From Ignavibacteriota bacterium (GTDB taxonomy: Bacteria; Bacteroidota; Ignavibacteria; UBA10030; SZUA-254): a stretch of 64,000 bases of DNA. The stretch spans positions 65,566 through 129,565 of the forward strand of contig JACREZ010000032.1 in NCBI GenBank assembly GCA_016212665.1, written 5' to 3'. Position 1 is the stretch's first letter. Every line of letters begins with the position of its first letter. The notes under the pieces were generated by a model, which worked only from the letters and a program-made list of their open reading frames with translations, was not told where the DNA came from and did not search any database. Shown here piece by piece: positions 12,817 through 58,850 of this stretch. Made by a program: the position numbers and the translations under genes.

Positions 12817-12830
12817 GCCACGTTCGATTC

Positions 12831-13546: not shown

Positions 13547-14887
13547 TTGCCGCAACGGTTTAACATACTCATTGTCGATGATGAGGCATCATTAACGAAA
13601 CTTCTACGGGAGGAACTTCAGGAACGGGAAACCTTCGAGGTTGACCTCGCCTTCGATGGTGTTGAAGCCATCAACCTTATTCAAAAAAAATTATACGATG
13701 TTGTTCTTTTAGATTTCAAAATGCCCCGCGTTGATGGCAAGGAAGTCTTAAAATTTGTCCAGGAACATTCTCCCTCCTCCCAAACAATTATTATCTCCAA
13801 TTTTGCTGACATTCAATTAGCAGTCGAGATGACCAAACTCGGCGCTATTGATGTTTTGGGGAAACCATTCGATATCAATCAACTTGAACAAAAAATCGAA
13901 CGGGCAATCGAGCATAAAAAGCTTGCCATTGACAATAAACTTCTTCAGGAAGAACTCGAACGGAAAGCAGGGACATCTGAAATTATCGGTAATAGTAAAG
14001 CAGTGGTTGACATATTACTCTACGGTAAACGAGTTGCGGAAAGTGATTCTGTTGTGCTCATTTTGGGACCGAGCGGAACCGGGAAAGAACTAATTGCAAA
14101 TTTTATCCATAAGAACAGCCCGCGCGTTCATTATCCTTTTGTGCCGGTGAATTGTTCCTCCATTCCTGATTCGCTCCTTGAAAGCGAATTGTTCGGGCAT
14201 GAAAAAGGAGCGTTCACAAACGCGTATACAGCCAAGCCGGGACTTGTTGAAGTCGCCAATGGCGGAACGTTGTTTCTTGATGAAGTTGGTGACATCAGTC
14301 AGACGGTTCAACCGAAATTGCTTCGCTTTTTAGAAAATGGGACATTTCGCCGCGTTGGAGGAACGAATGAATTGAAAGCGAACGTCAGGGTTCTCTCGGC
14401 AACAAATAAAAACCTTCAGGAAGAAGCGCGTGCTGGAAGATTCAGGGAAGATTTATTGTACCGATTGAATGTTTTCACACTTCGTATGCCCGCATTAAAA
14501 GACCATGTCGAAGATATTCCCTTACTCGTGGATTTCTTTCTTCAAAAGAAATCAAAAACAAAACAACCGAAGCAACTCAGCAAGGAAGCATTAAACGCGA
14601 TGATGATGTATAATTGGCCCGGGAATGTTCGTGAACTTGAGCATGTCATCGAGCGGGCAATTATACTTTCGAGCGGAGAAATCATCGAACAACACGACCT
14701 CCATCTTACCGACCAACAACCGGAACAGGGAACCAAAACCTTTTCGCTCGATGATATGGAAAAGGAACACATCGAAAAAGTTTTAAAAATTTTCAAGGGC
14801 AATCGTGCGAAAGCATCGGAAGCCCTTGGTATTAGTCAGAAAACTTTATACACGAAAATAAAAGAGTACGAAATTTCTGTAGAATAA
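13547..14887 (+). CDS. sigma-54-dependent Fis-family response regulator (NtrC-like: receiver + AAA+ sigma54 activator + HTH)
   Basis: TTG start. Receiver domain, Walker A GPSGTGKE, the GAFTGA-like loop ESELFGHEKGAFTNA and a C-terminal Fis-type HTH (ASEALGISQKTLYTKIK). Confidence 0.85.
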   Translation: MPQRFNILIVDDEASLTKLLREELQERETFEVDLAFDGVEAINLIQKKLYDVVLLDFKMPRVDGKEVLKFVQEHSPSSQTIIISNFADIQLAVEMTKLGAIDVLGKPFDINQLEQKIERAIEHKKLAIDNKLLQEELERKAGTSEIIGNSKAVVDILLYGKRVAESDSVVLILGPSGTGKELIANFIHKNSPRVHYPFVPVNCSSIPDSLLESELFGHEKGAFTNAYTAKPGLVEVANGGTLFLDEVGDISQTVQPKLLRFLENGTFRRVGGTNELKANVRVLSATNKNLQEEARAGRFREDLLYRLNVFTLRMPALKDHVEDIPLLVDFFLQKKSKTKQPKQLSKEALNAMMMYNWPGNVRELEHVIERAIILSSGEIIEQHDLHLTDQQPEQGTKTFSLDDMEKEHIEKVLKIFKGNRAKASEALGISQKTLYTKIKEYEISVE

Positions 14888-24000: not shown

Positions 24001-24815
24001 AGAGTGTTTCCGGATTGACAACGTCTGCTATCTTCGGTTATGAAGATGGTTACTACATTACCGACACCATTAAACCGATGCACGGATATTGGGTGAAAGC
24101 ATTACAGGCAGGAGAACTGATTCTTTCTCAATCGAACATAGTATTTCCAAAATCTTTGAGTGTGAAGGAACAATTAGAACAACTCAACTCACTCACATTT
24201 GAAGACGCACGGGGAAAGAAACAAACACTCTATTTCGGAACTACGTCATCAAAATTCAACAGTAATCAATTCGAGATGCCCCCCACTCCTCCCGGCGGCG
24301 CATTCGATGTCCGATACTCCACCAACAAGTTCGTCACATTGTTTGATAAAACACATCCGGCAGAAATTCCCATCCATATTTCTTCAGAACACTATCCAAT
24401 CAAAGTCTCATCAAAAATTATTGACGCTTCCCAAAACATCTCCGTAGTAATTGATGGATCAAAAACTCAATTAACATCAATAACCAATGTACAAATCGTC
24501 AATCGTCAATCGTCAATCTCAATCATCAATACTACTTCTCCCGATCTCCCTAAGCAAGTAGTTTTGAATCAGAACTATCCCAACCCCTTTAATCCATTGA
24601 CAATTATCAATTATCAATTATCAATTCACAATTATGTAACATTAAAGGTGTATGATATTCTTGGAAAAGAAATTGCAACCTTAGTTGATGGAAAACAAGA
24701 AGCAGGTTCTCACTCAATCAAATTCGATGCAAAGAATCTCGCATCCGGAATTTATTTGTACAAACTAACGGTCGGTTCGTTCACCGAAACAAGGCGGATG
24801 ATAGTATTAAAATAA
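21090..24815 (+). CDS. T9SS C-terminal-sorting-domain protein with multiple BNR/Asp-box beta-propeller repeats (paralogue of 4212..7634)
   Basis: N-terminal signal-anchor, many S/TxDxGxTW repeats, a shared middle module (WNLVSLH, GYWLKF, FEMPPTPPGGAFDVRY) and the C-terminal T9SS domain KVYDILGKEIATLVDG...GIYLYKLT. Confidence 0.85.
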   Translation: MFEIYSWHMKLYHQTKFLFSVASSIVCFVLAFFIIIQNSNSFKNEQEEEGHALDAFNWWYGQRENSDGMIASQSLLKAHRYASSKMKREETKRQPNGKTVQWESIGPNNVGGRILSLAIDPSNTNILWAGSASGGLWKSTTKGIGADAWEYVNTGFPTISISAITIDPANPNVMYIGTGEISYYHFPLIGTPGARASYGMGILKSTDAGATWNTTPLTFTFSQITAIQKIVLNPLNTNTVYVATSEGVYKSADAGQTWSVSNSVVMTMDLVMSPSDTSLLISSHGNLNSSPNPGMYRTTDAGATWTLITNYSPTFSDFGRTALAFSPSNPQIVYAGISSGSTRTLLGLYKSSDSGISWTKVSSTNYVGSQGWYNNVVAVNPQDENVVYCSGIDLYESISGGANLTRKTDWTHGYMYYIAPGGIEGDSLYAHADHHAIAIDPTDPNIIYAGTDGGVFQSTDGGETFSGRNGGLVTTQFYPGFANSFLNENIAFGGLQDNGVLKYLGTTAWNKVDGGDGGWCAVDPRSDNIVFDEYVYLTISKSTNGGLTFRSISASLPTGSSNANFIAPFVISPSNPDILYAGTKVVYKTTNGGDSWFATNGGNWFNGTQVSAIGVSWLSSDTLMASTGTGSYNSSPFFQIFVSTNGGQNWSNVTGSLPNRYPTDIHFDYSNSKTVFLTYSGYGTSHVFKTTNLGQTWLNLTSNLPDVPTQSIVTDPENPEDIFVGTDLGIYHSSDGGEFWNDFNAGMPLTMITDVTISNITGILRASTFGNGLYQRSLPRVPVLNLKYPKNGETLIAGKEYQIKWTQRYCSNVDIEYSSNNGTDWQTIASNLPANTDSLSWTVPFDSTETAKLRFIHLSDSSVIDSTQYFSIIIAPHVLSDWNLVSLHLSVNDASKLNLFPTALSEAYRFEQGYKISDTLYNGFGYWLKFEKPQHVFIAGDSIFTDTVQVNARWNIIGSLSVPISVNQITESVSGLTTSAIFGYEDGYYITDTIKPMHGYWVKALQAGELILSQSNIVFPKSLSVKEQLEQLNSLTFEDARGKKQTLYFGTTSSKFNSNQFEMPPTPPGGAFDVRYSTNKFVTLFDKTHPAEIPIHISSEHYPIKVSSKIIDASQNISVVIDGSKTQLTSITNVQIVNRQSSISIINTTSPDLPKQVVLNQNYPNPFNPLTIINYQLSIHNYVTLKVYDILGKEIATLVDGKQEAGSHSIKFDAKNLASGIYLYKLTVGSFTETRRMIVLK

Positions 24816-24995
24816 ATATTCCCCCTTTGAAGAGCCTGTCCCGAATTTATTTCGGGAGGGGCAGGTCTACGACTCGTAGAGGGGATGTCACACCAATGAA
24901 AAACAAAATTATTCCATCTCCGAATCTTGAAAATAGAATGGATATTTGTTATACTGTCACAGAACAACAAACATGTCTTCAAAAAAACATATTAC
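24745..24995. repeat. left copy of a 250-bp direct repeat (3' end of the T9SS sorting-domain ORF plus a nested palindromic element)
   Basis: About 95% identical to 26795..27045 over the core attccccctttgaagagcctgtcccgaattta...ggatatttgttatact. The 5' portion encodes ...GSFTETRRMIVLK*. Confidence 0.8.
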
Positions 24996-25084
24996 GTAAA
25001 TCATACTTGCGTAGTTAGCAGTCATACTAAAAGACATCACAGTTATAACAAAACACTACTTTTGAAACAACATTAATATTCTTT

Positions 25085-26281
25085 TTGTACCTTCGACATT
25101 CAATGGCAGACAAGGCATACATAACCCCAAACGTTTTTAAATGGGCAAGAGAATCGGCAAGAATGTCCGAAGAAACTGCTGCTGCAAAAGTTTCTGTATC
25201 TGTCGACAAACTGAAAGAATGGGAAACAGGAACTAACCAACCTACCATTAGACAAGCACAAACCTTGGCAAAAGCTTACAAAAGACCTTTTGCTTTATTC
25301 TTTTTACCGGAAATTCCAAAAGACTTTCAGCCTCTTCAAGACTTCAGAAAGAGTGGCTCAAAATCATTAAGCACTGCTTCAGTATTTATTATCCGTGAGA
25401 TTCAACAAAAACAATCATGGATAAGTGAACTGAATGAAGAAAATAATGAAAATAAAATTCCATTTGTCGGCAGATTTTCAATTAAAGACAATCCGGTAAA
25501 TGTTGCAAATGATATATTAAATACATTTGGCATTACCCCGGCTAACTACAAAACTGAAAATCCAATTAAAGAATGGATAGACAAAGCAGAGTCGAACGGA
25601 GTATTCATTTCACGTACAAGTTTTATTCACTCACGACTTAAATTAGATTCAGAAGAAATTCAAGGTTTTGCAATTGCAGATCCTTTTGCACCCTTTGTTT
25701 TTATTAACTCTGACGATTGGAATGCACCACAATTATTCACACTTGTACATGAACTTGCACATCTTTGGATAGCTGAAACTGGTATTTCAAACAACATTGA
25801 ACCGGAAATTAAAAATAAAGATAAGTTTCACCCCATTGAGTTGTTTTGCAATGAAGTTGCTGCGCATGCTTTAATACCGGAAAACTTCATGAACAACATA
25901 AATAAAAACACTTTTGATAATTCAATGGAAGTTTTTAAGGTTGCAAAAAAATTAGGGGTTAGTTCATTTGCTTTTTTAGTGAGAGCGTTAAACCTCAATC
26001 TTATTTCAATCAGTGTTTATCAAGCATTGAAGCGAGAAGCGGATGTTGAATACAACGCTTTTCTGAAAAGAGAAGCAGAAAATAAAGCAAAACAAAAGAA
26101 GAAAGAAAAACCCGGTGGTCCAAACTATTTTCTCTTACAACTTAATAGAAATAGTCGGCTATTTACTCAAACAGTTTTAGATGCGTTTCGTGGAGGTTTT
26201 ATTGAACCTACTCAAGCAAGTAATTTACTTAATGTTCGAGTCAATAAATTTCAAAAATTAGAGGCACAGTTATATAAATGA
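25085..26281 (+). CDS. XRE-type HTH fused to ImmA/IrrE-family Zn-metallopeptidase domain (COG2856-like)
   Basis: N-terminal HTH region followed by the HExxH motif VHELAHLW of the DUF955/ImmA peptidase fold. Confidence 0.75.
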   Translation: MYLRHSMADKAYITPNVFKWARESARMSEETAAAKVSVSVDKLKEWETGTNQPTIRQAQTLAKAYKRPFALFFLPEIPKDFQPLQDFRKSGSKSLSTASVFIIREIQQKQSWISELNEENNENKIPFVGRFSIKDNPVNVANDILNTFGITPANYKTENPIKEWIDKAESNGVFISRTSFIHSRLKLDSEEIQGFAIADPFAPFVFINSDDWNAPQLFTLVHELAHLWIAETGISNNIEPEIKNKDKFHPIELFCNEVAAHALIPENFMNNINKNTFDNSMEVFKVAKKLGVSSFAFLVRALNLNLISISVYQALKREADVEYNAFLKREAENKAKQKKKEKPGGPNYFLLQLNRNSRLFTQTVLDAFRGGFIEPTQASNLLNVRVNKFQKLEAQLYK

Positions 26282-26784
26282 GCACAAAGGCAGATTTATA
26301 TTGTTTAGATGCCAATGTACTTATTCAAGCTTGGCTAAAATACTATTCACCCAAATTTTGCTCCGAGTATTGGGATGTTCTTAATCAGTTGGGAATCCAA
26401 AAAAAGATTTTTCTCCCTGCGTTAGTTTATGAAGAAATAACTCGGACTGAAGATGACCTATCGCATTGGTTAAATAATAGTAACATCCCAATTCACAAAA
26501 TTGATGAACCTGTCACCAAATGTTTGCAATCCATATATTCTCAAAATCCTCTACACAAAAATTTAGTTGACAACACAAAGTCAAGGTCGTTAGCTGACCC
26601 TTGGTTGATAGCGCATGCAATGAATGAAAGTGCGACTGTTGTTACAAAAGAAGAAAAGGTTACTGCGCTTAATTCAAACAAAATAAAAATACCGAATGTA
26701 TGTGAAAACATGGCTGTAAGGTGCATTAACGACTTTGAATTTATAGACGAAATGAACATTAAGTTTTCATGTAAATTGCAGTGA
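26278..26784 (+). CDS. DUF4411-family PIN-like protein
   Basis: 168 aa starting MSTKADLYCLDANVLIQAW..., an acidic PIN-like core. It overlaps the upstream HTH-ImmA gene by 4 nt. This pairing is a known two-gene module. Confidence 0.6.
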   Translation: MSTKADLYCLDANVLIQAWLKYYSPKFCSEYWDVLNQLGIQKKIFLPALVYEEITRTEDDLSHWLNNSNIPIHKIDEPVTKCLQSIYSQNPLHKNLVDNTKSRSLADPWLIAHAMNESATVVTKEEKVTALNSNKIKIPNVCENMAVRCINDFEFIDEMNIKFSCKLQ

Positions 26785-26794
26785 TACGATACTC

Positions 26795-27045
26795 AGCAAA
26801 CCGCCAAACTCACATCCGGCTCGTTCACAGAAACAAAACGGATGTTGGTACTAAAATAAAAATTCCCCCTTTGAAGAGCCTGTCCCGAATTTAATCCGGG
26901 AGGGGCAGGTCTACGACTCGTAGAGGGGATGTCCCAACCATGAAAAACAAAATTATTCCATCTCCGAATCTTGAAAATAGAAAGGATATTTGTTATACTC
27001 ACACTCAATAATGAACACATTATTCAAAAACATATCACGTTTATC
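26795..27045. repeat. right copy of the 250-bp direct repeat, including a degenerate remnant of a sorting-domain 3' end (...GSFTETKRMLVLK*)
   Basis: See 24745..24995. Confidence 0.8.
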
Positions 27046-27115
27046 TTCCTTACTTTGAATAGATATACGGAATGCGTACTTACAGTAGTTATACGCCAGC
27101 ACGTGTCAGTGAGAA

Positions 27116-28300
27116 ATGAAAGCAGCTGTTGACTCCATATTAGATCTCTCGACTTGGGAACTACCAAATCCCAAAAATCCCGAGACGGCATATTTTCCTG
27201 CAAAGGACGGTGTTGGCAGGCAGATGGCACGTTGGATTCTTCCTGATAGTCTATCTCCACTCGACTTGTTCTGTTACATCCGGGCACGCTTCGGTCCGCC
27301 CAATGGTCCAACAATGTTGATCCGACAAAACTCAACCGACAATTTGATTCAATGGCATTACACCCTGCGAACAGGCACAATACCTATCGACATTGTTGGA
27401 TTGACATCACGCATTGAGGTCTCGTTTACTCACGTTCCTGAATTCTCTCGGGCTGATCAGGAGAAACTCGTCGAGAACATCAAGAAAGACATCTCCCATC
27501 GTGCACCAGAAATAAAGGCGGTGCGGCAACAGTTGGAGAAATACTCTCTTTTCATCAATCCATACAAACGTTTGTCTGACATCCTTGATGATTTGCAGAA
27601 CAGGCTGCAGGGTCTGAAACTCGACGAGATTCAATTGCCAAGGACACCTACCACTGCGGTTACAAAGAAAGAAGCGGAAGAATGGCAAGCCGAAGCCAAG
27701 CGTTGTCAAGTGGTATTCCGTGAAGGTGCTTTACTCGGCACCAGCATCAGGATGATTGCTCCCGTTCTTGGTGAGTCTTTCGTCAACCTGCTGATATTCA
27801 GTCTTGCCAAGCCAGAAATCAAGAACGATGAGCGACTATACAAGGATTTGATAAATAAGCAGATAGATATTAGAATCAAAAGTCTACATCTCTATTGCCA
27901 AGGGTTTGCAAAACCAATCGATGCGTCAAGCGACTCATTCAAGGACTTCCACACATTAATGAATCGTAGAAACGATATTCTCCACGGCAACATCGACCCG
28001 CTGAGGTTGAAGTATGACGAGGCGTACTTCTATGGAACAATTCCCCTTTTCACAACGCAAAAGGATTTTGCAACAAGAGGCATCAAGGAGTATCTGAGTG
28101 GTGTTGAGCCAGAGATTGCTCTTGCCGACATTCGCACTGTCACGAGGTTCGTGGAGTTTGTCTTGAATCATCTTTCGCCGGATTACATATCTTCGGTCGA
28201 AATGATAATGAATGATCCAAAGCCCGGATGGAGAGAGGACACCAAGCGAATCGGTATCCTTTTTTCCGGAGTTGCCGAAATGTTATTGATCAAGGAATGA
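27116..28300 (+). CDS. hypothetical protein (island gene)
   Basis: 394-aa ORF with GC higher than its neighbours and no recognisable motif. Confidence 0.5.
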   Translation: MKAAVDSILDLSTWELPNPKNPETAYFPAKDGVGRQMARWILPDSLSPLDLFCYIRARFGPPNGPTMLIRQNSTDNLIQWHYTLRTGTIPIDIVGLTSRIEVSFTHVPEFSRADQEKLVENIKKDISHRAPEIKAVRQQLEKYSLFINPYKRLSDILDDLQNRLQGLKLDEIQLPRTPTTAVTKKEAEEWQAEAKRCQVVFREGALLGTSIRMIAPVLGESFVNLLIFSLAKPEIKNDERLYKDLINKQIDIRIKSLHLYCQGFAKPIDASSDSFKDFHTLMNRRNDILHGNIDPLRLKYDEAYFYGTIPLFTTQKDFATRGIKEYLSGVEPEIALADIRTVTRFVEFVLNHLSPDYISSVEMIMNDPKPGWREDTKRIGILFSGVAEMLLIKE

Positions 28301-28373
28301 AGTGACACGTGCCGGCGTATAACAAGCAAAACACCGAACAAGGAATTAAGAGGAATATTTACTTAGGTGCCAA

Positions 28374-29033
28374 ATGCCAACGATAACTGAGACGGTTGAC
28401 AACCTTGACGAAGCCAAGATTCTCGGGTACTTCGAGGTTATTCGAGGAACTTTCCTGACAAAGATTCTTCAGTTCCTGATGATTCATGGTGAGAAAGACA
28501 GTCATCCAATCATTGCTCGATCCAAGATTCCCAACGATGTCATTGCGCAAGTCAAGCACGAATTTGGCAACGAAAAACTGTTCTTTCAGGCCCTTGAGCT
28601 CGAAAACGAAGAACTCTATCACAATCTGATGGAAGACATTCTCACATCGATACTGGTCGGGTCTTGGATTACTTTCGAACAGATCGCTAAAGACATTCCC
28701 AACCCCAATTATTCACACAATGCCGATGACCAGAGTCTAGACTATAAACGAGGAGATTTCGGATTTTCCAAGACAGAAAAGGATAACCTTGATCTGTTCT
28801 ACTACATTCGAAATTCAATTCAACATCACAACGGTGCTTACTTCGCTTCCAGAGAGGTAAACGCTAAGTACAATGAACAAGTCTTTCAATCCATCGGACA
28901 CATTGGAGAGAAGATGATTATCAGCCTTCAAACAGCATACAAAATTTGTCTCGACCTTGAACGACTTTCGTGTAAGGCTTGGTCAAATTATCAACGGCGC
29001 AAATACATCTCATTACAACCGTCTCCGTTGTAA
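28374..29033 (+). CDS. hypothetical protein (island gene)
   Basis: 219-aa ORF, 73 nt downstream of the previous gene on the same strand. Confidence 0.5.
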   Translation: MPTITETVDNLDEAKILGYFEVIRGTFLTKILQFLMIHGEKDSHPIIARSKIPNDVIAQVKHEFGNEKLFFQALELENEELYHNLMEDILTSILVGSWITFEQIAKDIPNPNYSHNADDQSLDYKRGDFGFSKTEKDNLDLFYYIRNSIQHHNGAYFASREVNAKYNEQVFQSIGHIGEKMIISLQTAYKICLDLERLSCKAWSNYQRRKYISLQPSPL

Positions 29034-29373
29034 CGTAAGTGCCTGACGCTCCAGCCTGCCTGCCGCAGGCATGGCGTCCATTATGAGGTATCGTGTACAT
29101 CTGCCTCTGCCACAAGAATACTCCATGATGCTACAAGTAAAATCAATTTTCATCCTTCCGCTTCTTATTTCTTTCATCCTATTTTCTATTTGTAACATCT
29201 TCATTTTGGTTTCTTCCTTCCTGTTTTTGATTAGTTTCAACACGTTTTCAATTTCTTTCATACTCATTTTTATTTGTTATTACCTATTTCGTATTAGTTA
29301 AATACTAATTTTTGTTTATTGCATACTATTTTCTATTTTTAGCATCCTCTATTCAAATTAATCAAACAACATT

Positions 29374-29727
29374 ATGCTAACTCTCGACCTAAAAGCAATT
29401 TGCAAACTTCGTGGCATTGATAGACCATACTCCTTTTTAGTAAAAGCGGGAATTTCTCCACAATCTGCAACAAAGTTAATAAACAGCAATACCCGCATTT
29501 TCCGCTTAGACCACATCGAAATCATTTGCGACAAACTTAACTGCACTCCCAATGACCTCCTTCGTTGGAAACCGGATAATGGTTCCACCCTCACCGACAA
29601 TCATTCTCTGACAAAATTATTACGGGATGAGAATTCATTCCAATTGCTCGAAACGTTAAAGGCTATACCATTAGAACAGTTAAACCAAATCGCAACACTC
29701 ATTAATCAACAAAAAACAGGCAAGTAA
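29374..29727 (+). CDS. XRE-family helix-turn-helix transcriptional regulator
   Basis: Cro/C1-type HTH: ICKLRGIDRPYSFLVKAGISPQSATKLINSNTRIFRLDHIEIICDKLNCTPNDLL. Confidence 0.65.
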   Translation: MLTLDLKAICKLRGIDRPYSFLVKAGISPQSATKLINSNTRIFRLDHIEIICDKLNCTPNDLLRWKPDNGSTLTDNHSLTKLLRDENSFQLLETLKAIPLEQLNQIATLINQQKTGK

Positions 29728-30032
29728 AAACCAAATCTCCAAATAATCAAAATTGAAATTAGCAAAGATATTCGTTATACTGTTACCGAACGATGAACAT
29801 GTCTGAAACAAATATCTTACGTTAGTCCTTCTTACGTTGCTCGGTCAACGACCTGTCGGGAAATACGCATCCGTATTTCAACAACTTAACGGTGAAGTTC
29901 TCACAATTTTGGAGCTAATCGGACAGAGAAACTCATCTTGAATCATTCTCAATATTCTTCGACCTCAATCATCTCAACGCCGGATAGAAATCTATTTTTC
30001 TACCGGAATTTCTACAATAATTTTACCTCGTA

Positions 30033-31850
30033 ATGTCTCCTTCTTCTTTTCATTCTTTCCATATTCCGGTCATGGGCTTGGCGTATACCGTGGACACGCC
30101 GCTCAAAGTAGCACGCTTCGGAATTAACTCTGTCGTTTCCATTATTGAAGATAACCTGCTGGAGGAGATGCGAAAATTTCATTGCATGCAGGCAAACGAA
30201 CAGTACATCCCCATCGGGAAGTACGAGTTCGATTGCCGTTCCCGCCGCGTGACTGAGTATTTGAATTTGTTAGAAAGAATCCTCCTCAGACAAATGGAAA
30301 AAATTAAGTCTGAACAATTTGAAGACGGGACAGATATTGTAAAGTATTTTGAACTGCTTCCCTCTTCTTCTCCACTACGCTATCTCTTCGACCAAATGAT
30401 GAACTTGGATGCAGGAGAAGAGAAATTGTTACTTCAGGAATCGCTCCGTGAAATCATTACCGCCGGTGCTATTGATGTAAACATTATGACCAAATGCGAC
30501 AGAACAAATTATTCTCAGTCGGGAGATGCATTACCCGTTGAGTATTCGGATGCGATGGCAGCCCTTCGCGGATTTGCAAACAGTCAACTTCGTTCTTCGG
30601 TTGTCTTCTCTGCGGGAATGAATCCACGCCTGTTCACCTACTGTGAAACATTCAAAGATTTTTTCCCGGATGAACATCAAAACCTGAATAAGAAAATCAC
30701 TCTGAAGGTAAGTGATTTCAGGTCAGCATTTATTCAGGGTAAATTTCTGGCAAAAAAAGGATTATGGGTTTCCGAATACAGAATCGAATCGGGTTTGAAT
30801 TGCGGCGGCCATGCATTTGCGACCGATGGTTATCTGCTCGCTCCGATATTGGACGAGTTCAAACATAAAAAAGAAGAATTAACCGCCGAACTGTTGGAGA
30901 TGTGTAACCATTCACTTCTCCAAAAAGAGATGAGAACGTTTTCGCACAAGCCAAATGTGAAAATCTCCGTTCAAGGCGGCATTGGTACAGCAAATGAACA
31001 TAATTTTCTGTTGGAACATTTTCAAGTTGACAGCGCGGGCTGGGGAAGCCCGTTTTTACTTGTGCCGGAAGTAACAAATGTTGATGAAGAAACCCTGCAC
31101 AATCTTGCTTCAGCAAAACAAGAGGATTACTACTTAAGTAACACTTCGCCTCTCGGTGTGCTGTTTAATAATTTTAGAAAGAGTTCTGCCGAACAGGAAA
31201 AAAAGAAAAGAATTGAAAACGGAAATCCCGGAAGCGCATGCTTCAATAAATATTTATCGTTCAATACTGAATTTACTGAAAAGCCCATTTGTGTTGCTTC
31301 ACGGGAATATCAGAATTTGAAAATCAATCAACTTACAGAACAACAACTTCCACCCGATGTTCTTGCAAAGCAAATAGAAAAAGTGACTGAAAAGGAATGT
31401 ATCTGCCAATACCTCGGTACATCTGCATATCTGAAAAACGAAATTCCTCCACCGCATAAAATTCAGGAAGTTACAATTTGCCCCGGACCCAATCTTGCAT
31501 ATTTCTCCAATACATTTTCATTGCGAGAAATGATTGACCACATTTACGGAAGAAAGAATATTCTCAACTCATTGCACCGACCAAATATGTTCATCAACGA
31601 GTTGAAGTTGTATGTTGATTATCTGGAAAAAGAAATTACCGATAGCATCGGTTCCGTGACGGAGAAAAAGAATAAATATTTGAAAACCTTTAAGGACAAT
31701 CTCCTTTCAGGAATTGAATATTATAAAACATTAGCGCAATCCATGATTCGGGAAACGGAACACTACCGTCAACATTTTGATGAAGCGTTAGGTAACCTCG
31801 AACAGTATTTAATGAATCTGGAAGTACCGGAGGCGTTTGTTCTAGAATAA
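30033..31850 (+). CDS. large hypothetical protein (island gene)
   Basis: 605-aa ORF with no recognisable domain. Convergent with the SIR2-like gene. Confidence 0.5.
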   Translation: MSPSSFHSFHIPVMGLAYTVDTPLKVARFGINSVVSIIEDNLLEEMRKFHCMQANEQYIPIGKYEFDCRSRRVTEYLNLLERILLRQMEKIKSEQFEDGTDIVKYFELLPSSSPLRYLFDQMMNLDAGEEKLLLQESLREIITAGAIDVNIMTKCDRTNYSQSGDALPVEYSDAMAALRGFANSQLRSSVVFSAGMNPRLFTYCETFKDFFPDEHQNLNKKITLKVSDFRSAFIQGKFLAKKGLWVSEYRIESGLNCGGHAFATDGYLLAPILDEFKHKKEELTAELLEMCNHSLLQKEMRTFSHKPNVKISVQGGIGTANEHNFLLEHFQVDSAGWGSPFLLVPEVTNVDEETLHNLASAKQEDYYLSNTSPLGVLFNNFRKSSAEQEKKKRIENGNPGSACFNKYLSFNTEFTEKPICVASREYQNLKINQLTEQQLPPDVLAKQIEKVTEKECICQYLGTSAYLKNEIPPPHKIQEVTICPGPNLAYFSNTFSLREMIDHIYGRKNILNSLHRPNMFINELKLYVDYLEKEITDSIGSVTEKKNKYLKTFKDNLLSGIEYYKTLAQSMIRETEHYRQHFDEALGNLEQYLMNLEVPEAFVLE

Positions 31851-32413
31851 ACTAACTCAAGTTGGCCGTTTAATAATAATTGCTAAGATAACTCAATATT
31901 GCCACATGACCATAAACAGTCACGCCAGTAAAATCAAGTCCAATAAAATCGGACGACATAAAACAGTCCCGTTTACGAGGCTTACTAATCATTTATGGTA
32001 ATACTACAGAAAATCGGAATAAACTAATCCTCTTTAAAGCGTCACGTTCCCCTTTCTGAGGAAACAAACATTGGAACACTATTGTTACCTTAGGGATTAT
32101 TACCAACTCATCTCGAAAGCATAACTATTCATTCTCATTAGGAACGATGGACTTCAAGAACACATGAGGGTAAGCTCAACTAAATCCTTCCGACAAATCC
32201 CTCCAGACCATCTGAATAATATTCGCACTTTGGAAAGAGAAGCCGATATCGTAATTCAGCTTCGTGACCATGTTGCACAACTATTACTTTTGGTTTTAAT
32301 TCCCGAGCCTGATAGGCTCGGATAAACAAAGAACGAATCCCGATATCTTCCTGTGGTAAAGAATAACCAATTATTACCCATGTGTTTGAAGACCGAAGAA
32401 ATTCGAGGGAATG

Positions 32414-33301
32414 TTACCACACTTCTACAATATTTGGATTATGATTTTCCCGGACAAACGACGGGGCAATGAGAGTTGAGCGAAGTTGGCGATTGGAACA
32501 ATGGCATGTACTAAAATAATCATCGTCCTTTTTATATGCCTGATGAACAATTGATCCTTCAAAATTAATATACATATGATCACACACGTCGCAATATAAC
32601 CAGTTGATGGAGCCATGCAGTTTGTAAAATCGAACTTTTGCACTGACTGCTCTGTCATGAATTGTCCCTGGCTCCACATCTCGCCATGCAAAACCAAAAT
32701 CAAACTCGTTACTTATTTTTAGAATATTGCTTTGATAATATTCATACAATTTACTTTCAATTCCAATATCATAATTCGTTGTAATTACACCCAAGGAATT
32801 TTCTTGCAGTTGTTTTATTATCCATTGGATAAATTTTCCTGTCACGGATTTATTAGCAGGGAATAGTTTTTCATATCGTTCTTGATAAACCTGAACGATT
32901 AAAAATGATATTGCCTGGTCGAGCAATTGGCGAAATTCTGTCAATTGATATCCAGACAACCGGGATGTGAGCGATTTTTCTTCCGAAAGAGAAAAATCAA
33001 GCATGGAAAGAACTTCTGTAATTAAAGGTAAATTCTTCTCTACGTCGGACATACAAAATATTCCATCGCCGGTATATTCCTTCGATTGGTTGATTGATTC
33101 TTGAAGATATTCTAACCCCGATAACATTTCATTTAAATATCCGGAAAGGATTTCCCTTCGCCGTTGATTTTCAGTTTCTGTGTTGAATTTATTATAAAGA
33201 TTATTCTTTGATAATTCCCGTAAAATTAAAGGGAAGATTTGTGGCGTCGTCATATACCCAAATGGTACCGATGCTCCCGCGCCTAAAAATAATGCTGTCA
33301 T
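32414..33301 (-). CDS. SIR2_2-family (SIR2-like, defence-associated) protein, N-terminal portion upstream of an in-frame TAA
   Basis: The N-terminus MTALFLGAGASVPFG is the characteristic SIR2_2 start motif. The same frame continues past the TAA at 32414-32416 for 77 more codons (32183..32413) that contain VIIGYSLPQEDIGIRSLF, the SIR2_2 C-terminal motif. Confidence 0.7.
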   Translation of the reverse strand: MTALFLGAGASVPFGYMTTPQIFPLILRELSKNNLYNKFNTETENQRRREILSGYLNEMLSGLEYLQESINQSKEYTGDGIFCMSDVEKNLPLITEVLSMLDFSLSEEKSLTSRLSGYQLTEFRQLLDQAISFLIVQVYQERYEKLFPANKSVTGKFIQWIIKQLQENSLGVITTNYDIGIESKLYEYYQSNILKISNEFDFGFAWRDVEPGTIHDRAVSAKVRFYKLHGSINWLYCDVCDHMYINFEGSIVHQAYKKDDDYFSTCHCSNRQLRSTLIAPSFVRENHNPNIVEVW

Positions 33302-33421
33302 GTTGTTCCTTTTATGAATTGAGTATGATGAAATCTGTCATTTCTTGTACCGTCAAGATCTTCCGTGACGGATGATTACCCTGAAAGTTCGTGTCAAGTC
33401 GTTATACAACTCCATAATAAT

Positions 33422-34666
33422 TCAATGGTAGACACTCTCTTTATTATCATATTTCTTTAGGGTCGTTAGTAACATCATTTTTACCTCAAGCGAGGTTTCG
33501 TTTTGGTAGAATAAGTTTAACTGTCTTTTTACTCTATCGCGTACATTCTCATCGCTGTTGTTTGCAAATGAACCGAGCACGTAAACACATAATCCCTTTG
33601 CTTCGAGATCGTTCGTCCTCAAAAACTTATTATATAATGGTTTTATGGAACGAGAATCCTGTATTCGGTACAGAAACGATGCGATTTTTTTTCTTTCGAT
33701 CGCGCTTCCGGAATCGAGCAAACTCACTGCTTTGAAATAAAAATCCTGTGACAAAATATCTTTACGTGTCCCTGCCGATGTCAGTGTTCCGACCGAATCA
33801 TGTTCTGTGAGCGCCATAAGATACAATGACAATTCTTCAAAACTCTCTGAGGCAATACTATCTCTCACCGTCACTGCGATTTCTTGTAAAAAGGGAGTCT
33901 CAACATTTGAAAGTTTTGATTGTAGTTTCAGTTGTTCGAACGGGTTTTTTTTGACTTTTATATTGTCTAAGATTTTTTTCGCTTCTTCGGAAGATATGGT
34001 TTTTTCTTGTAGAAATGGTTGTGCATACGCTATATTGAAAACATCGATCGGAAAAAAACGATGCGATGTCAGTTTATTCGTTTTTTCCCGAAATAATATC
34101 TTCATCGGTATCGAACCTGCATATTCAATGAACATTGTTACACGATCGTTTTCGACATGATGTAACAAATCTTCAGCGCTAAAACGAAGTTCACCGTATG
34201 TCTCCCATCCTCCTTGACTATTGCCAAAATATTTTGCAAGAACTAACGTTTGCATCTGATTCATATCGGATTTAGGAATATGAAGTATCCATTCATAGAC
34301 AAAGACACTTCCTTTTATTTTTTTCTTGATAAACATTCCGTCACCCATCGCCTCATACTGTAATAATCCTATCGGCAACGACCTTTCATCACTCCCAATT
34401 ATTTCTCCTCTAATAACTAAATCGTCTGTTTCTGTAATTACAGGATACACGACTAAAAACAGCATGACACCAATAATCAAACCTAACAAAATAAACATGC
34501 CTTTATACACAAAGACCTTTACTTTCATCGGCATGGAAGGGAAATACTTGTCAAGAAAATTGTAAATTTTCGTTGCGTGAACATCCAACGCTTCTGTTTT
34601 ATTTTTTGCCATAACTATCCTTTCATTATTGTATGTGAATATGATGTAATATTGTTTTTTTTTCAA
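33422..34666 (-). CDS. hypothetical membrane-anchored protein, upstream partner of the SIR2-like gene
   Basis: 414 aa with a TM segment GMFILLGLIIGVMLFLVVYPVI and a soluble C-terminal region. Same strand, 120 nt upstream of the SIR2-like gene. Confidence 0.55.
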   Translation of the reverse strand: MKKKQYYIIFTYNNERIVMAKNKTEALDVHATKIYNFLDKYFPSMPMKVKVFVYKGMFILLGLIIGVMLFLVVYPVITETDDLVIRGEIIGSDERSLPIGLLQYEAMGDGMFIKKKIKGSVFVYEWILHIPKSDMNQMQTLVLAKYFGNSQGGWETYGELRFSAEDLLHHVENDRVTMFIEYAGSIPMKILFREKTNKLTSHRFFPIDVFNIAYAQPFLQEKTISSEEAKKILDNIKVKKNPFEQLKLQSKLSNVETPFLQEIAVTVRDSIASESFEELSLYLMALTEHDSVGTLTSAGTRKDILSQDFYFKAVSLLDSGSAIERKKIASFLYRIQDSRSIKPLYNKFLRTNDLEAKGLCVYVLGSFANNSDENVRDRVKRQLNLFYQNETSLEVKMMLLTTLKKYDNKESVYH

Positions 34667-34769
34667 CAGTGGTTACTGTTCGTCCCAACATTCATATTCG
34701 ATGATGTTCAAGTCTGATCACGAATTGAACTTTCTTTTGTTAGACAAATTCTGACCGCGAATGTGTTCA

Positions 34770-35276
34770 TTAGCTCAATGCATGGAGAATGAATTTTATT
34801 TTCTCTCCTCTCGACCGCAATTTCCTCAGCGACTCATCAAGCAGTTCCCCGCATTTATAGATTGCATTGTTCTTCTTTCTAATATACCGGAAAAGAAGCC
34901 CGACGGAGAGAAACATCATGGCAACCAAAAAGACAGTTAGCCGCAGGACAAAAAAGAGCGTATCAACTGCTTCAATTTGTACAGTCGTTGTTGTTGTCAC
35001 TCCACTGCCGAGGTCTTGGGTAAAGGCAGGCAGACTGAGTGTAAGGGAAAATATCCATCCTGTAAACGCAAGGACAAACAGTGCATAAAAGAAAAACTCA
35101 ATCACGATGCCGAGACTTTTCATGAGTATCCTACCAAACGCATTCTGTTTGATTGACTGATAATACTTGTCAAACGATTGAATCATTGCATCCGTCTCCG
35201 ATAATTGATTTGTGTAATCAAGCCGGATATCGGGTGGAAGTATTGTGTTATTATTTTGTTCGGGTTGTTGGGTCAT
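34770..35276 (-). CDS. hypothetical membrane protein
   Basis: 168 aa with two or three TM segments. Overlaps the upstream gene by 4 nt. Confidence 0.45.
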   Translation of the reverse strand: MTQQPEQNNNTILPPDIRLDYTNQLSETDAMIQSFDKYYQSIKQNAFGRILMKSLGIVIEFFFYALFVLAFTGWIFSLTLSLPAFTQDLGSGVTTTTTVQIEAVDTLFFVLRLTVFLVAMMFLSVGLLFRYIRKKNNAIYKCGELLDESLRKLRSRGEKIKFILHALS

Positions 35277-36481
35277 GGTTGTGTTCCTTTGATTTGATAT
35301 TCATCATCAAAAACTTTCAAAACAAATTCTGTTGCAAACTCTTTCCCTTTAGGGGTTAAGATAAATAAACCACCCTGATCCTGCATGAGACCAAGTGTTT
35401 GAAAATACTGTATAGCTGTTGCTGGAATTGCAGTTCTTGGTAAGAATGGGGGATTAGAATTTTGAAGTTCTATAATTGTTTCGAAATGTTTTCTCAATTG
35501 TTGATTTGAAATAATTGTTCTAAGTTCCTTAGATAATTGTGAAGGTGTATTTTCATCTTTAATGCTTAATAATTCTTTTTCAAGTTGTATAATTTTTTCA
35601 GTAAGCTGATTATTATCGTGTTTTAATTCATGAATTTGATTAATCAATTCTTCTCTTTGGTTTTTTATGTCATTAAGTTTCAAACTCAATTCACTCTCGT
35701 TATTTAACACACGTCGAAATTCTCTATCCAATTCTTTGTACAAAGGAGATTCTTTAATATGATTATCAATATTGTTTATTCTATTACTTAAACCATTGAC
35801 TTCTTTCTTCAATGTTTCATTTTCAAAAGTAATGTTTTTGTCATGCTCAAGAAGTTGCTCATATGTTTCTTTTATTTTTTCAAATGCTGTAATCCTATCT
35901 TTTAACAAGACTATTTCTACATCTTTTGTATCAATTTCTTTTGAAAACTCTTCTTTTTGTTTTTGTAATGAAGTTTTAATCTCTAAAGTCTGCTCTAAAG
36001 TCAACAGCTTTTCTTTTTCATTCTTTAACTCTGTTATTTGATTTTCTAATACTACGATTTCTTTTTCTTTCGCATCGACAACTTTATTAAACTCTTCTTC
36101 CTGTTTTTGAATTGACTTTCTAATATCTATTGATTGTTCCAATGTCAGCAGTTGATTCTTTTCAATTTCGTTCTTAATATCCATTTGTCGTTTCTTGTGT
36201 ATTAACCAAATTTTCAAAAAGACTGTTGAGGCAAAAGGATATACCGAAACAATCAACATTGCAGAGAGTAACGGAAACAAAATTGTATTTGATATATCAA
36301 GATAATTTGCTTCAATAAACTGCAACCTATCAATGATTCTCAAACTCATATCATCATTAAACAGGTAATAAATAATTTTCCAGTTCCATGCAAACCATGA
36401 TAACACAAGAGCGCCCGAAAGGGGGCTGGATATTCTTTCGTAAAGTGTCAGTTGTATAGATTTTTTTATGTCGTCGAGCAT
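35273..36481 (-). CDS. hypothetical membrane + coiled-coil protein with internal sequence duplication
   Basis: N-terminal TM segments, then a long coiled coil containing a duplicated segment of about 45 aa (LLTLEQSIDIRKSIQKQEEEFNK... and LLTLEQTLEIKTSLQKQKEEFSK...). Confidence 0.5.
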   Translation of the reverse strand: MLDDIKKSIQLTLYERISSPLSGALVLSWFAWNWKIIYYLFNDDMSLRIIDRLQFIEANYLDISNTILFPLLSAMLIVSVYPFASTVFLKIWLIHKKRQMDIKNEIEKNQLLTLEQSIDIRKSIQKQEEEFNKVVDAKEKEIVVLENQITELKNEKEKLLTLEQTLEIKTSLQKQKEEFSKEIDTKDVEIVLLKDRITAFEKIKETYEQLLEHDKNITFENETLKKEVNGLSNRINNIDNHIKESPLYKELDREFRRVLNNESELSLKLNDIKNQREELINQIHELKHDNNQLTEKIIQLEKELLSIKDENTPSQLSKELRTIISNQQLRKHFETIIELQNSNPPFLPRTAIPATAIQYFQTLGLMQDQGGLFILTPKGKEFATEFVLKVFDDEYQIKGTQP

Positions 36482-36709
36482 AATGCTGTTCTTTCAATTA
36501 GTTTTGCATTCGTGTCAGGGGACCCTTCCCCCTCCCACCCCAGTCCTTTCCCTACTTTCCGCCAAAGTGGACAGGTGTATGGAAGGGGAGAGATTCATAT
36601 TATTTTTCAATTCTTGTTTCATACCATTTCATTGAGAAAATATTCAAAAGTATGTCACTCCCTTCCCTTCGGAGAATGGAAGTGCCGGGATGGGTTACTT
36701 CATATCACC

Positions 36710-58235: not shown

Positions 58236-58850
58236 GTGTTATTGGAAAGACTACCATCTATGAAAACATCCAACAATAATTCTGAAAAAGGAAAAAATAA
58301 ATTTGATAGTAAGTCACTTATTATTTTATCAATTGCTTCATTATTTATTATTTTGTTAGTTTATCTTTATTTAAATAATGCAGATAAAGATAATTCTTGG
58401 TCAGAAGAAGAAAAAATTGCTTTAGCAAATTACATCGATTCATTATATCCAACGAATGATGTATCTGATTTGCCTCTTGAAAAAGAAAATTTTCTTTCTG
58501 AAAACCCATTTACAAAATTCAGTCTTTTAGCGGAAGGGGGTCGAACCATCCATGCTTCTGTTTTCAAAACGCATAAATACGGAAGTGGTAGATTATTAAT
58601 CATTTTTGCACCGTTCTTAAGTTATTCAGACGGCAATTTTTATATAGCTTCCCTTTCAGCCTTACACAATATTTATGGAAAACAAAGGGGTCTTTTTCTG
58701 CTGGAAGAAGCAAGAAAGAAATATGATGAGACAATACAATCAAAAGTAATCTATTGGAGTATTTCAAATCCAAATCAATCTTTTTACTCTTTCCCTATTG
58801 TAGACACTGACACCGAAACTATATCTTCAATCGTTGTCTGGACAGAATAA
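58236..58850 (+). CDS. hypothetical membrane-anchored protein (AT-rich insert)
   Basis: 204 aa with one N-terminal TM segment in a low-GC block. Confidence 0.45.
   Translation: MLLERLPSMKTSNNNSEKGKNKFDSKSLIILSIASLFIILLVYLYLNNADKDNSWSEEEKIALANYIDSLYPTNDVSDLPLEKENFLSENPFTKFSLLAEGGRTIHASVFKTHKYGSGRLLIIFAPFLSYSDGNFYIASLSALHNIYGKQRGLFLLEEARKKYDETIQSKVIYWSISNPNQSFYSFPIVDTDTETISSIVVWTE

Follow-up and report, generated by a model that had tools for sequence, protein, structure and literature searches.

A native gene between two variable regions with toxin- and defence-type modules and a stranded integron cassette in an Ignavibacteriae chromosome

Insertion at secondary sites and loss of the attC site are described fates of integron gene cassettes (PMC4889954, PMC4670013), integron arrays have been reported to be rich in defence genes (bioRxiv 10.1101/2024.07.02.601686), and HEPN cassettes are already known from integrons (PMC3710099; bioRxiv 10.1101/2024.07.02.601686; bioRxiv 10.64898/2026.03.17.712381). 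The arrangement of a helix-turn-helix (HTH)-DUF955 gene with a DUF4411 gene has been described by Matelska et al. 2017 (PMC5499597) as a toxin-antitoxin (TA) type module. Here we analysed positions 24816-36481 of a 64,000-nt stretch of DNA from an Ignavibacteriota bacterium (assembly GCA_016212665.1, contig JACREZ010000032.1, positions 65,566 to 129,565 of the forward strand), the whole of which is called the window below. This locus is likely to be a recombination-prone accessory patchwork in an Ignavibacteriae chromosome, in which independent toxin- or defence-type modules make up two variable regions beside a native 605-aa gene. One of these modules, a gene for a 394-aa protein, is a stranded integron cassette.

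Cassettes found outside integrons or with lost attC sites include secondary-site insertions, fused cassettes, single attC sites (SALIN) and clusters of attC sites lacking integron integrases (CALIN). The 394-aa gene is like these in being a promoterless single ORF (open reading frame) between GTTRRRY and an RYYYAAC at the stop codon, in having its left homology boundary at the G|TT crossover point, and in having as its closest relative a gene with a full attC in an attC cluster, at metagenome locus L002. It differs in that just R'' and 14 nt of L'' are left, in a core (GTTATAC) one step off GTTRRRY, in a duplicated host promoter that stands in place of the integron promoter Pc, and in its host, an Ignavibacteriae metagenome-assembled genome (MAG).

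The native 605-aa gene and the two variable regions

The original prediction had taken 24816-36481 as a single accessory island of about 12 kb, probably concerned with defence, and much of its description stands. Every ORF that it had listed was found in place, most of its domain guesses hold against Pfam and PADLOC profiles (HTH_3 with Peptidase_M78, DUF4411, HTH_26 and, weakly, SIR2_2), and the left flanking gene is, as it had said, one of the type IX secretion system (T9SS), a BNR/Sortilin cargo gene. On the right lie Exo_endo_phos, Peptidase_C92 and PLD genes. The genes of the region, and one repeat array, are the following:

25085..26281, plus strand: ImmA-HTH protein, HTH_3 with Peptidase_M78 (ImmA/IrrE) (PF06114 3.6e-11, PF01381 9e-7)
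26278..26784, plus strand: predicted DUF4411 PIN-like nuclease (PF14367 3e-40; PIN 6e-4), overlapping the ImmA gene by 4 nt
27116..28300, plus strand: 394-aa protein with an N-terminal alpha/beta domain and a C-terminal helical domain, motif R285-N286-x3-H290
28374..29033, plus strand: 219-aa protein of a small family (44 representatives), motif FYYIRNxxxHxNGAY (Rx4H)
29166..29345, no strand: 21-nt tandem array (Tandem Repeats Finder period 21, 8.2 copies), AT-rich with GC 0.245, directly upstream of the HTH_26 gene
29374..29727, plus strand: HTH_26 (Cro/C1-type) regulator of 117 aa (PF13443 2.3e-12)
30033..31850, plus strand: 605-aa protein of a conserved family, native in composition
32177..33301, minus strand: SIR2_2-type gene of 374 codons, with an in-frame TAA at 32414-32416 after codon 295; GAGAS, TTNYD and KLHGS intact
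33422..34666, minus strand: 414-aa protein with one N-terminal hydrophobic segment (residues 47-85) and a possible HEAT-like C-terminus (alphaRep E 0.036)
34770..35276, minus strand: 168-aa protein with two hydrophobic segments, overlapping the 402-aa gene by 4 nt
35273..36481, minus strand: 402-aa protein that has a long coiled coil and whose N-terminal domain is membrane-associated

The accessory and mosaic character of the region was borne out, but not its unity. The 605-aa gene in the middle, which had been counted among the hypothetical genes of the island, is instead conserved and native in composition (GC z -0.6, GC at third codon positions (GC3) z 0.0, codon z +0.7). Its family has at least 8000 homologues of a constant length of about 605 aa in Ignavibacteria and Bacteroidota, with 58-90% identity among the best 120 listed, and no match to it was found in Pfam, NCBIfam or PDB sequences. 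Conservation also includes the upstream region, as window positions 29749-31843, containing the promoter, a leader of about 250 nt and the ORF, are 83% identical to locus L087 of the groundwater Ignavibacteriae MAG GCA_016191715.1, with unrelated flanks. Because of this native composition, the conserved homologues and the conserved upstream region, we recognise two variable regions, 24816-29720 and 31851-36709, which flank the 605-aa gene, and not one island.

For the leader (29782-30032; L087 3743-3993), mean column identity is 85% over the alignment of 29700-30040, against 83% for 29749-31843. It has no Rfam match and may be an unrecognised cis-regulatory leader. The Rfam search on 20-40 kb returned only RAGATH-8 with an E of 0.28, which was dismissed as chance. 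The sole tRNA gene of the window is distant, at 12830. In two relatives, a HicA/HicB toxin-antitoxin pair is found immediately downstream of the 605-aa homologue (L088 11929-12371; L089 4802-5244), and the spot beside this gene appears to be a recurrent landing site.

The composition of the region is heterogeneous, as had been predicted, with a GC of 0.458 at 27116-28300 and of 0.338 at 29040-29370. Computation of GC and codon-usage deviation singled out the ImmA, DUF4411, 414-aa and 402-aa genes as AT-rich (GC z -2.0 to -3.9; -2.5 for ImmA, -2.4 for DUF4411 and -3.9 for the 402-aa gene) and the 394-aa gene as strongly atypical in codon usage (z -4.3).

One alternative, which we consider rather unlikely, is that phage defence is no function of the modules, which would be selfish addiction (toxin-antitoxin) genes or cargo in decay, and that the region is a dumping ground beside a promoter. 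The broken SIR2 gene, the truncated cassette, the TA-type architecture of the ImmA/DUF4411 genes and the HicAB pair at the same spot in relatives would fit such a reading, as would the PADLOC search, in which no complete known system came up and the only matches were those of the ImmA-HTH protein, the SIR2 protein and the 402-aa (coiled-coil) protein. However, none of the 394-aa, 219-aa, ImmA and DUF4411 ORFs is broken and all keep their key motifs, and homologues are found grouped with restriction-modification, CHAT and nSTAND genes as well as in integron arrays. This alternative is in any case compatible with the patchwork explanation.

It is far less probable that the whole block 24816-36481 was acquired horizontally as one defence island, perhaps with a new multi-gene system formed by SIR2 and a membrane partner or by the two adjacent hypothetical genes as a pair. 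The mean GC is indeed low (0.377 for the region versus 0.412 for the 64-kb window), and the region is, as predicted, rich in toxin- and defence-type genes (one SIR2, a PIN-like gene partnered by an ImmA-HTH gene, and two genes whose proteins carry HEPN-type motifs). Synteny breaks on the left, where the homology of the T9SS gene to its orthologue in the sole related genome stops exactly at the stop codon; the synteny comparison carries no further than this left break, that genome (GCA_016191715.1) being rearranged on both sides. However, the 605-aa gene, its promoter and its leader are native and conserved, and neither an integrase, among the 35 ORFs of 180-500 aa scanned in the window, nor att-type ends were found. 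The undescribed multi-gene system that had been proposed did not materialise either. Homologues of the 394-aa, 219-aa and SIR2 genes each recur elsewhere with other neighbours, the SIR2 gene is interrupted by a nonsense codon, and in related contexts of these three traced genes no conserved multi-gene partnership was seen.

The stranded cassette and the copied promoter

The boundaries of the cassette are marked by three short elements:

27088..27108, plus strand: left cassette arm, the R' core GTTATAC with a 14-nt extension
28303..28323, plus strand: right cassette arm, a 14-nt extension with the R'' core GTATAAC (28317-28323)
28324..28337, plus strand: attC L'' remnant AAGCAAAACACCGA, where homology to the attC of L002 ends; the L'/R' half is absent

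The two 21-nt arms (GTTATAC…/…GTATAAC) are complementary at 20 of 21 positions and lie 7 nt before the ATG and 2 nt after the stop codon of the 394-aa gene. The R' core matches GTTRRRY at 6 of 7 positions, and just past the stop there is an R'' core (RYYYAAC) complementary to the cassette's own R'. Metagenome locus L002 encodes an 88%-identical protein, and its nucleotide homology with the window (85.8%) is limited to 27088-28337, starting from the G of GTTATAC. In this locus a complete attC-like site comes after the gene (R'' GTATAAC, L'' AAGCAAAACACCG, L' CGGTGTTTTGCT, R' GTTATAC) and its bottom strand folds at -52.4 kcal/mol (z -6.8), another attC-like site precedes the gene, and a further one is found downstream at 14072-14228. 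L002 (1-21185) is a live-cassette locus with at least three attC-like sites, adjoining a type I/IIG restriction-modification gene pair and CHAT and sigma-70 genes, and has no integrase within 10 kb.

The same kind of ends was found in other members of the family. Of 79 testable loci, drawn from 80 metagenome loci together with the window copy, L002 and L003, 20 had the ORF bracketed, at a score of at least 9, by inverted repeats that end in GTT…AAC, while other trinucleotide ends reached at most 4. The bracket ends GTTAGGC, GTTAGAC, GTTATGC and GTTGGGC agree with the GTTRRRY/RYYYAAC consensus, and a downstream R''/L''-L'/R' partner was present in about 20 of the 29 bracketed loci, 9 beating all shuffled controls by at least 3 kcal/mol. 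The window copy has no complete attC, as only 14 nt of L'' are present and the partner duplex (-8.5 kcal/mol) is no better than the control mean (-8.9 kcal/mol); a crude pattern scan for a complete attC in the window gave only noise inside coding regions. Since the boundaries match those of L002, most bracketed loci have attC partners, the partner is absent from the window and a scan of 35 window ORFs of 180-500 aa gave no tyrosine recombinase, the 394-aa gene is a stranded and truncated (fossil) integron cassette outside any integron, a relic and not a mobile element. Having landed outside an integron and lost the distal half of its attC, and sitting 89 nt downstream of the -10 box of the promoter-like site P2, it would thus have been immobilised and be transcribed from P2.

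In loci L014, L020, L035, L045, L068, L073 and L083 and in the window, R'/R'' complementarity continues for 4-15 nt past the 7-nt cores, and to 22 nt in L020. Such extended complementarity would lengthen the base of the attC stem in a circular cassette.

A function of the 21-nt inverted repeat in place, such as that of a long-range 5'/3' mRNA stem (controlling the translation of a toxic gene or serving RNase III processing), of inverton arms or of the terminal repeats of a transposon that is non-autonomous, is improbable. In its favour, complementarity is higher in the window (20/21) than in L002 (18/21), the arms lie inside the predicted transcript close to the start and stop codons, many loci have arms longer than the 7-nt cores, and arms can still be made out in L003, where protein identity is 61%. 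Against it, the arms are accounted for as ends of a cassette by the conserved GTTRRRY/RYYYAAC termini and by the attC partners found downstream in most of the bracketed loci, the differences between the window and L002 are not compensatory, arms of the GTTGGGCGG/CCGCCCAAC type have no common terminal direct repeat and hence no transposon-like target-site duplication, the bracket is missing from family members in proviral contigs, and no transposase or invertase is present nearby. An insertion sequence or miniature inverted-repeat element with TA or TATA target duplication was likewise rejected, because such arms allow no shared duplication and most bracketed loci have attC partners.

Three direct repeat copies accompany the modules of the left region:

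24761..25008, plus strand: R1, which starts with the final 55 nt of the T9SS gene and also holds a hairpin cluster (24834-24880) and promoter-like P1 (24927-24955)
26805..27051, plus strand: R2, with a degenerate remnant of the T9SS C-terminal tail (26805-26859), the same hairpins and promoter-like P2 (26971-26999)
29721..29837, plus strand: R3, a partial copy with promoter P3 (29753-29781) and the first part of the 605-aa gene's leader

R1 and R2 are 85.5% identical over 249 nt, with the ImmA/DUF4411 pair between them, and R1 folds at -34 kcal/mol (z -2.5). The idea that repeats had been copied from the flanking T9SS gene is therefore real as far as the duplication goes; these repeats are, however, not mere border marks, as they bracket a cassette and carry promoter copies. 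The best sigma-70-like site of the region, TTGAAA-17-TATACT, is in the part shared by all three copies and is kept in L087; at P1 it is TG-extended and scores 10/12 in the promoter scan. R3 contains the native promoter P3 of the 605-aa gene, and the promoter parts of R1 and R2 are copies of it, including the first 55 nt or so of the leader of about 250 nt. Each copy of the promoter is found upstream of one unit, namely the ImmA/DUF4411 operon, the 394-aa gene and the 605-aa gene. The GTTATAC of the three repeat copies was considered as an attC or attI core and ruled out, being the -10 box of this promoter and conserved in L087.

At window positions 25031-25050, by R1, the sequence CACAGTTATAACAAAACAC resembles both cassette junctions fused (ACAGTA|GTTATAC … GTATAAC|AAGCAAAACAC). 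This sequence suggests that the R1/R2 duplication is younger than the insertion of the cassette.

Two families with HEPN-type motifs

HEPN abortive-infection (Abi) and toxin proteins, such as AbiD/F Abi_2, AbiU2, ApeA, RiboL-PSP-HEPN, MAE_28990-like proteins and the "integron cassette HEPN" of PDB 3jrt, share with the two families of this locus an R-N-x3-H, invariant or nearly so, that in the models ends a long helix of what would be a helical bundle, and an occurrence as single-gene modules in defence-island, integron and prophage settings. The window families differ from them in that no curated model matches them at threshold and solved structures give no significant match in sequence or in fold, and the conserved N-terminal domain of the 394-aa family falls in no assigned family.

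The 394-aa family is widespread. A word-index search gave at least 134 homologues in many phyla, with no Pfam domain, and 286 metagenome stretches were confirmed, with 11 proviral contigs; the proviral members have no GTT…AAC bracket. The neighbours of homologues are restriction-modification, CHAT, nSTAND and integrase genes, and homologues are also found in integron arrays and proviral contigs. R285, N286 and H290 are invariant across 44 aligned sequences (RNDxLHGN), giving the Rx4-6H motif of the HEPN superfamily, which the 219-aa family has as well. In the AlphaFold2 model of the 394-aa protein (predicted local distance difference test, pLDDT, 91.3) the motif lies at the end of the long helix 273-289. 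At this motif the best profile scores, 0.0027 for HEPN_MAE_28990 and 0.007 for RiboL-PSP-HEPN, are sub-threshold and belong to individual members of the family; the window protein itself scores under the curated cut-offs. One member is named "ApeA N-terminal domain-containing" in UniRef, and no ApeA model is among the Pfam matches for the 44 aligned members. From the motif, the position of the helix and the genomic context we infer that the 394-aa protein is a HEPN-like RNase, this being the basis of the name because no significant PDB match was obtained.

In the 219-aa family (22 sequences), R146 is invariant and N147 and H151 are at least 90% conserved, and single members have weak matches to Abi_2 (0.002) and HEPN_Cthe2314 (0.038). 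The model of the 219-aa protein (pLDDT 92.9) has four long helices, with the motif at the end of helix 133-152. Motif, helix position and context point here to a second HEPN-like module with a putative RNase role, unrelated to the first in profile comparison. Both genes are independent single-gene modules, because each has different neighbours elsewhere. On the same grounds of unrelated profiles and different neighbours, a two-gene HEPN pair made of the 394-aa and 219-aa genes was rejected.

Perhaps the family of about 390 aa is an undescribed single-gene abortive-infection nuclease of HEPN type that has been spread over many phyla by integron cassettes and prophages, with the window showing a promoterless cassette domesticated outside an integron behind a duplicated host promoter. 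We put this forward tentatively, as a possibility that falls short of being the likelier one.

Remaining modules and meaning of the patchwork

The DUF4411 gene lies directly downstream of the fused HTH-DUF955 gene, which is the feature of the TA-type module of Matelska et al., and both ORFs are intact. The likeness to the three-component HTH-DUF955(ImmA)/PIN-like TA type is that a fused gene for an XRE-HTH and an M78 zinc peptidase lies upstream of a small toxin gene and overlaps it. The ImmA-HTH protein has the zinc motif HELAH in its translation and matches PADLOC RmrA (PDLC03952, 3.2e-20, residues 8-332) and phrog_2439 (4e-59). It thus resembles RmrA and is a putative antitoxin or regulator, with the DUF4411 PIN-like protein as the putative toxin. 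RosmerTA is defined by a zinc-peptidase antitoxin and a toxin without known function, and the window pair is like it on the antitoxin side only (RmrA-type HTH with zinc peptidase). It differs in its toxin, which is a DUF4411 (PIN-like) protein that matched neither RmrT nor any other PADLOC model. Judged by its sequence the pair is of a known TA-type, Rosmer-like architecture, and its toxicity and role in defence are predicted.

The 21-nt array upstream of the HTH_26 gene is probably regulatory DNA. Its units are phased at two helical turns and may form an operator or curved-DNA array; an 84-codon ORF on the minus strand covers part of it and is probably spurious.

In the right region, the SIR2_2-type gene had been predicted together with a membrane-protein partner. 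SIR2_2-type proteins act as NADase in defence systems. The ORF at 32414-33301 has a weak SIR2_2 match and matches PADLOC SIR2 at 1.5e-13, so that this part of the prediction holds, weakly. However, the gene is broken by a stop codon and the pairing with the 414-aa gene found no support, as the neighbours of SIR2 homologues differ and the 414-aa protein has no family match and no relatives were found. SIR2 homologues are mostly 340-460 aa, and tblastn aligned them in one frame from 33298 to 32192, through the TAA; loss of the C-terminus via frameshifts was accordingly replaced by a single in-frame TAA. As the catalytic-type motifs are intact, the gene is probably a recent pseudogene. It is like short SIR2_2 defence proteins in its length of about 374 codons, in the motifs GAGAS/TTNYD/KLHGS and in its PADLOC SIR2 match, the closest solved chain being the SIR2-like 8w9l of about 380 aa (E 4.5e-4). 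It differs from the SIR2 defence systems (Thoeris, DSR, SIR2-HerA and pAgo-SIR2) in being interrupted and in the varying neighbours of its homologues, and Pfam and PADLOC found no TIR, HerA, pAgo or other known SIR2 partner among its own neighbours.

The N-terminal domain of the 402-aa protein is common to phage "hypothetical" proteins (phrog_4780 6e-13), and one relative of this domain is a lone opposite-strand gene in the nin region of the Klebsiella phage KO-TP1 (prophage). The PADLOC LmuB and JetC matches of this protein cover the coiled-coil region only (residues ~90-335) and were taken as coiled-coil similarity. On the minus strand, R''-like heptamers are present about 15-25 nt past the stops of the 414-aa gene (GTATAAC, 33401-33407) and the 168-aa gene (GTCTAAC, 34741-34747), and may be chance or more decayed cassette ends. 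The heptamers after the 219-, 414- and 168-aa genes were rejected as attC remnants, as they have no partner.

At the right border, the intergenic sequence 36482-36709 contains many G/C-run palindromes (…CCCATCCCGG…GGGAAGGGAG…, …GGGGTGGGAGGGGGAAGGGTCCCC…) in a style like the hairpin cluster of R1 and R2. Elsewhere in the window, a 204-aa ORF at 58236-58850 (GC 0.304, z -3.6; GC3 0.215), with no Pfam match, lies in a 1-kb trough of GC 0.299 and is possibly another foreign gene.

In the patchwork explanation, the left region would have been built from small independent modules stacked behind copies of the host promoter. These would be a PIN-like nuclease (DUF4411) restrained by its HTH-protease partner, a promoterless 394-aa cassette that inserted outside an integron, became immobilised and would be driven by P2, and then, as separate units, the 219-aa HEPN-like gene and the HTH_26 regulator behind its own 21-nt array. 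The right region would consist of the SIR2_2 gene, presumably silenced by its nonsense codon, and three genes for membrane or coiled-coil proteins. Of all these products, the PIN-like and HEPN-like proteins, and formerly the SIR2 protein, may be growth-arresting effectors of TA or abortive-infection type.

What the analysis shows is the anatomy of the locus, its motifs, the origin of the 394-aa gene as a cassette and that the modules are mobile. Several points nevertheless weigh against this explanation. RNase and NADase activities and an anti-phage function are predicted, and an anti-phage role is plausible. The HEPN assignment is made of a motif and sub-threshold profiles, as no Pfam, NCBIfam or PADLOC model matched at threshold, Foldseek against PDB gave no significant match for the 394-aa or the 219-aa model, and profile searches of PDB sequences gave no match for either family. 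A scan of 35 ORFs (180-500 aa) in the 64-kb window, which is part of a 258-kb contig, gave neither an integron integrase nor a Phage_integrase-type domain. The direct repeats of 249 nt and about 115 nt may have come from Campbell-type insertion of a circle with the target region or from inter-strain recombination between differing inserts, both being candidates. The TAA that interrupts the SIR2 gene could stem from an error of assembly, and the right border and the order of the insertion events are putative, as they were read with a single, rearranged related genome.

The architecture of the HTH-DUF955/DUF4411 module, the presence of HEPN genes in cassettes and the role of integron arrays as stores of defence genes are already known, and none of our findings overturns current ideas. 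What is new is modest, and consists of an uncharacterised, widespread and cassette-borne HEPN-like family together with a clear instance in which a copied host promoter lies ahead of a stranded cassette. A plausible call of a defence island has been turned into a precise anatomy, with a native gene between two insertion hot spots, and an Ignavibacteriae chromosome is seen to hold a stranded integron cassette that is apparently driven by a copied host promoter. The 394-aa family, which has no curated model, is thereby a concrete candidate for defence-gene screens of integron cassettes, where HEPN-type hits have already been reported.

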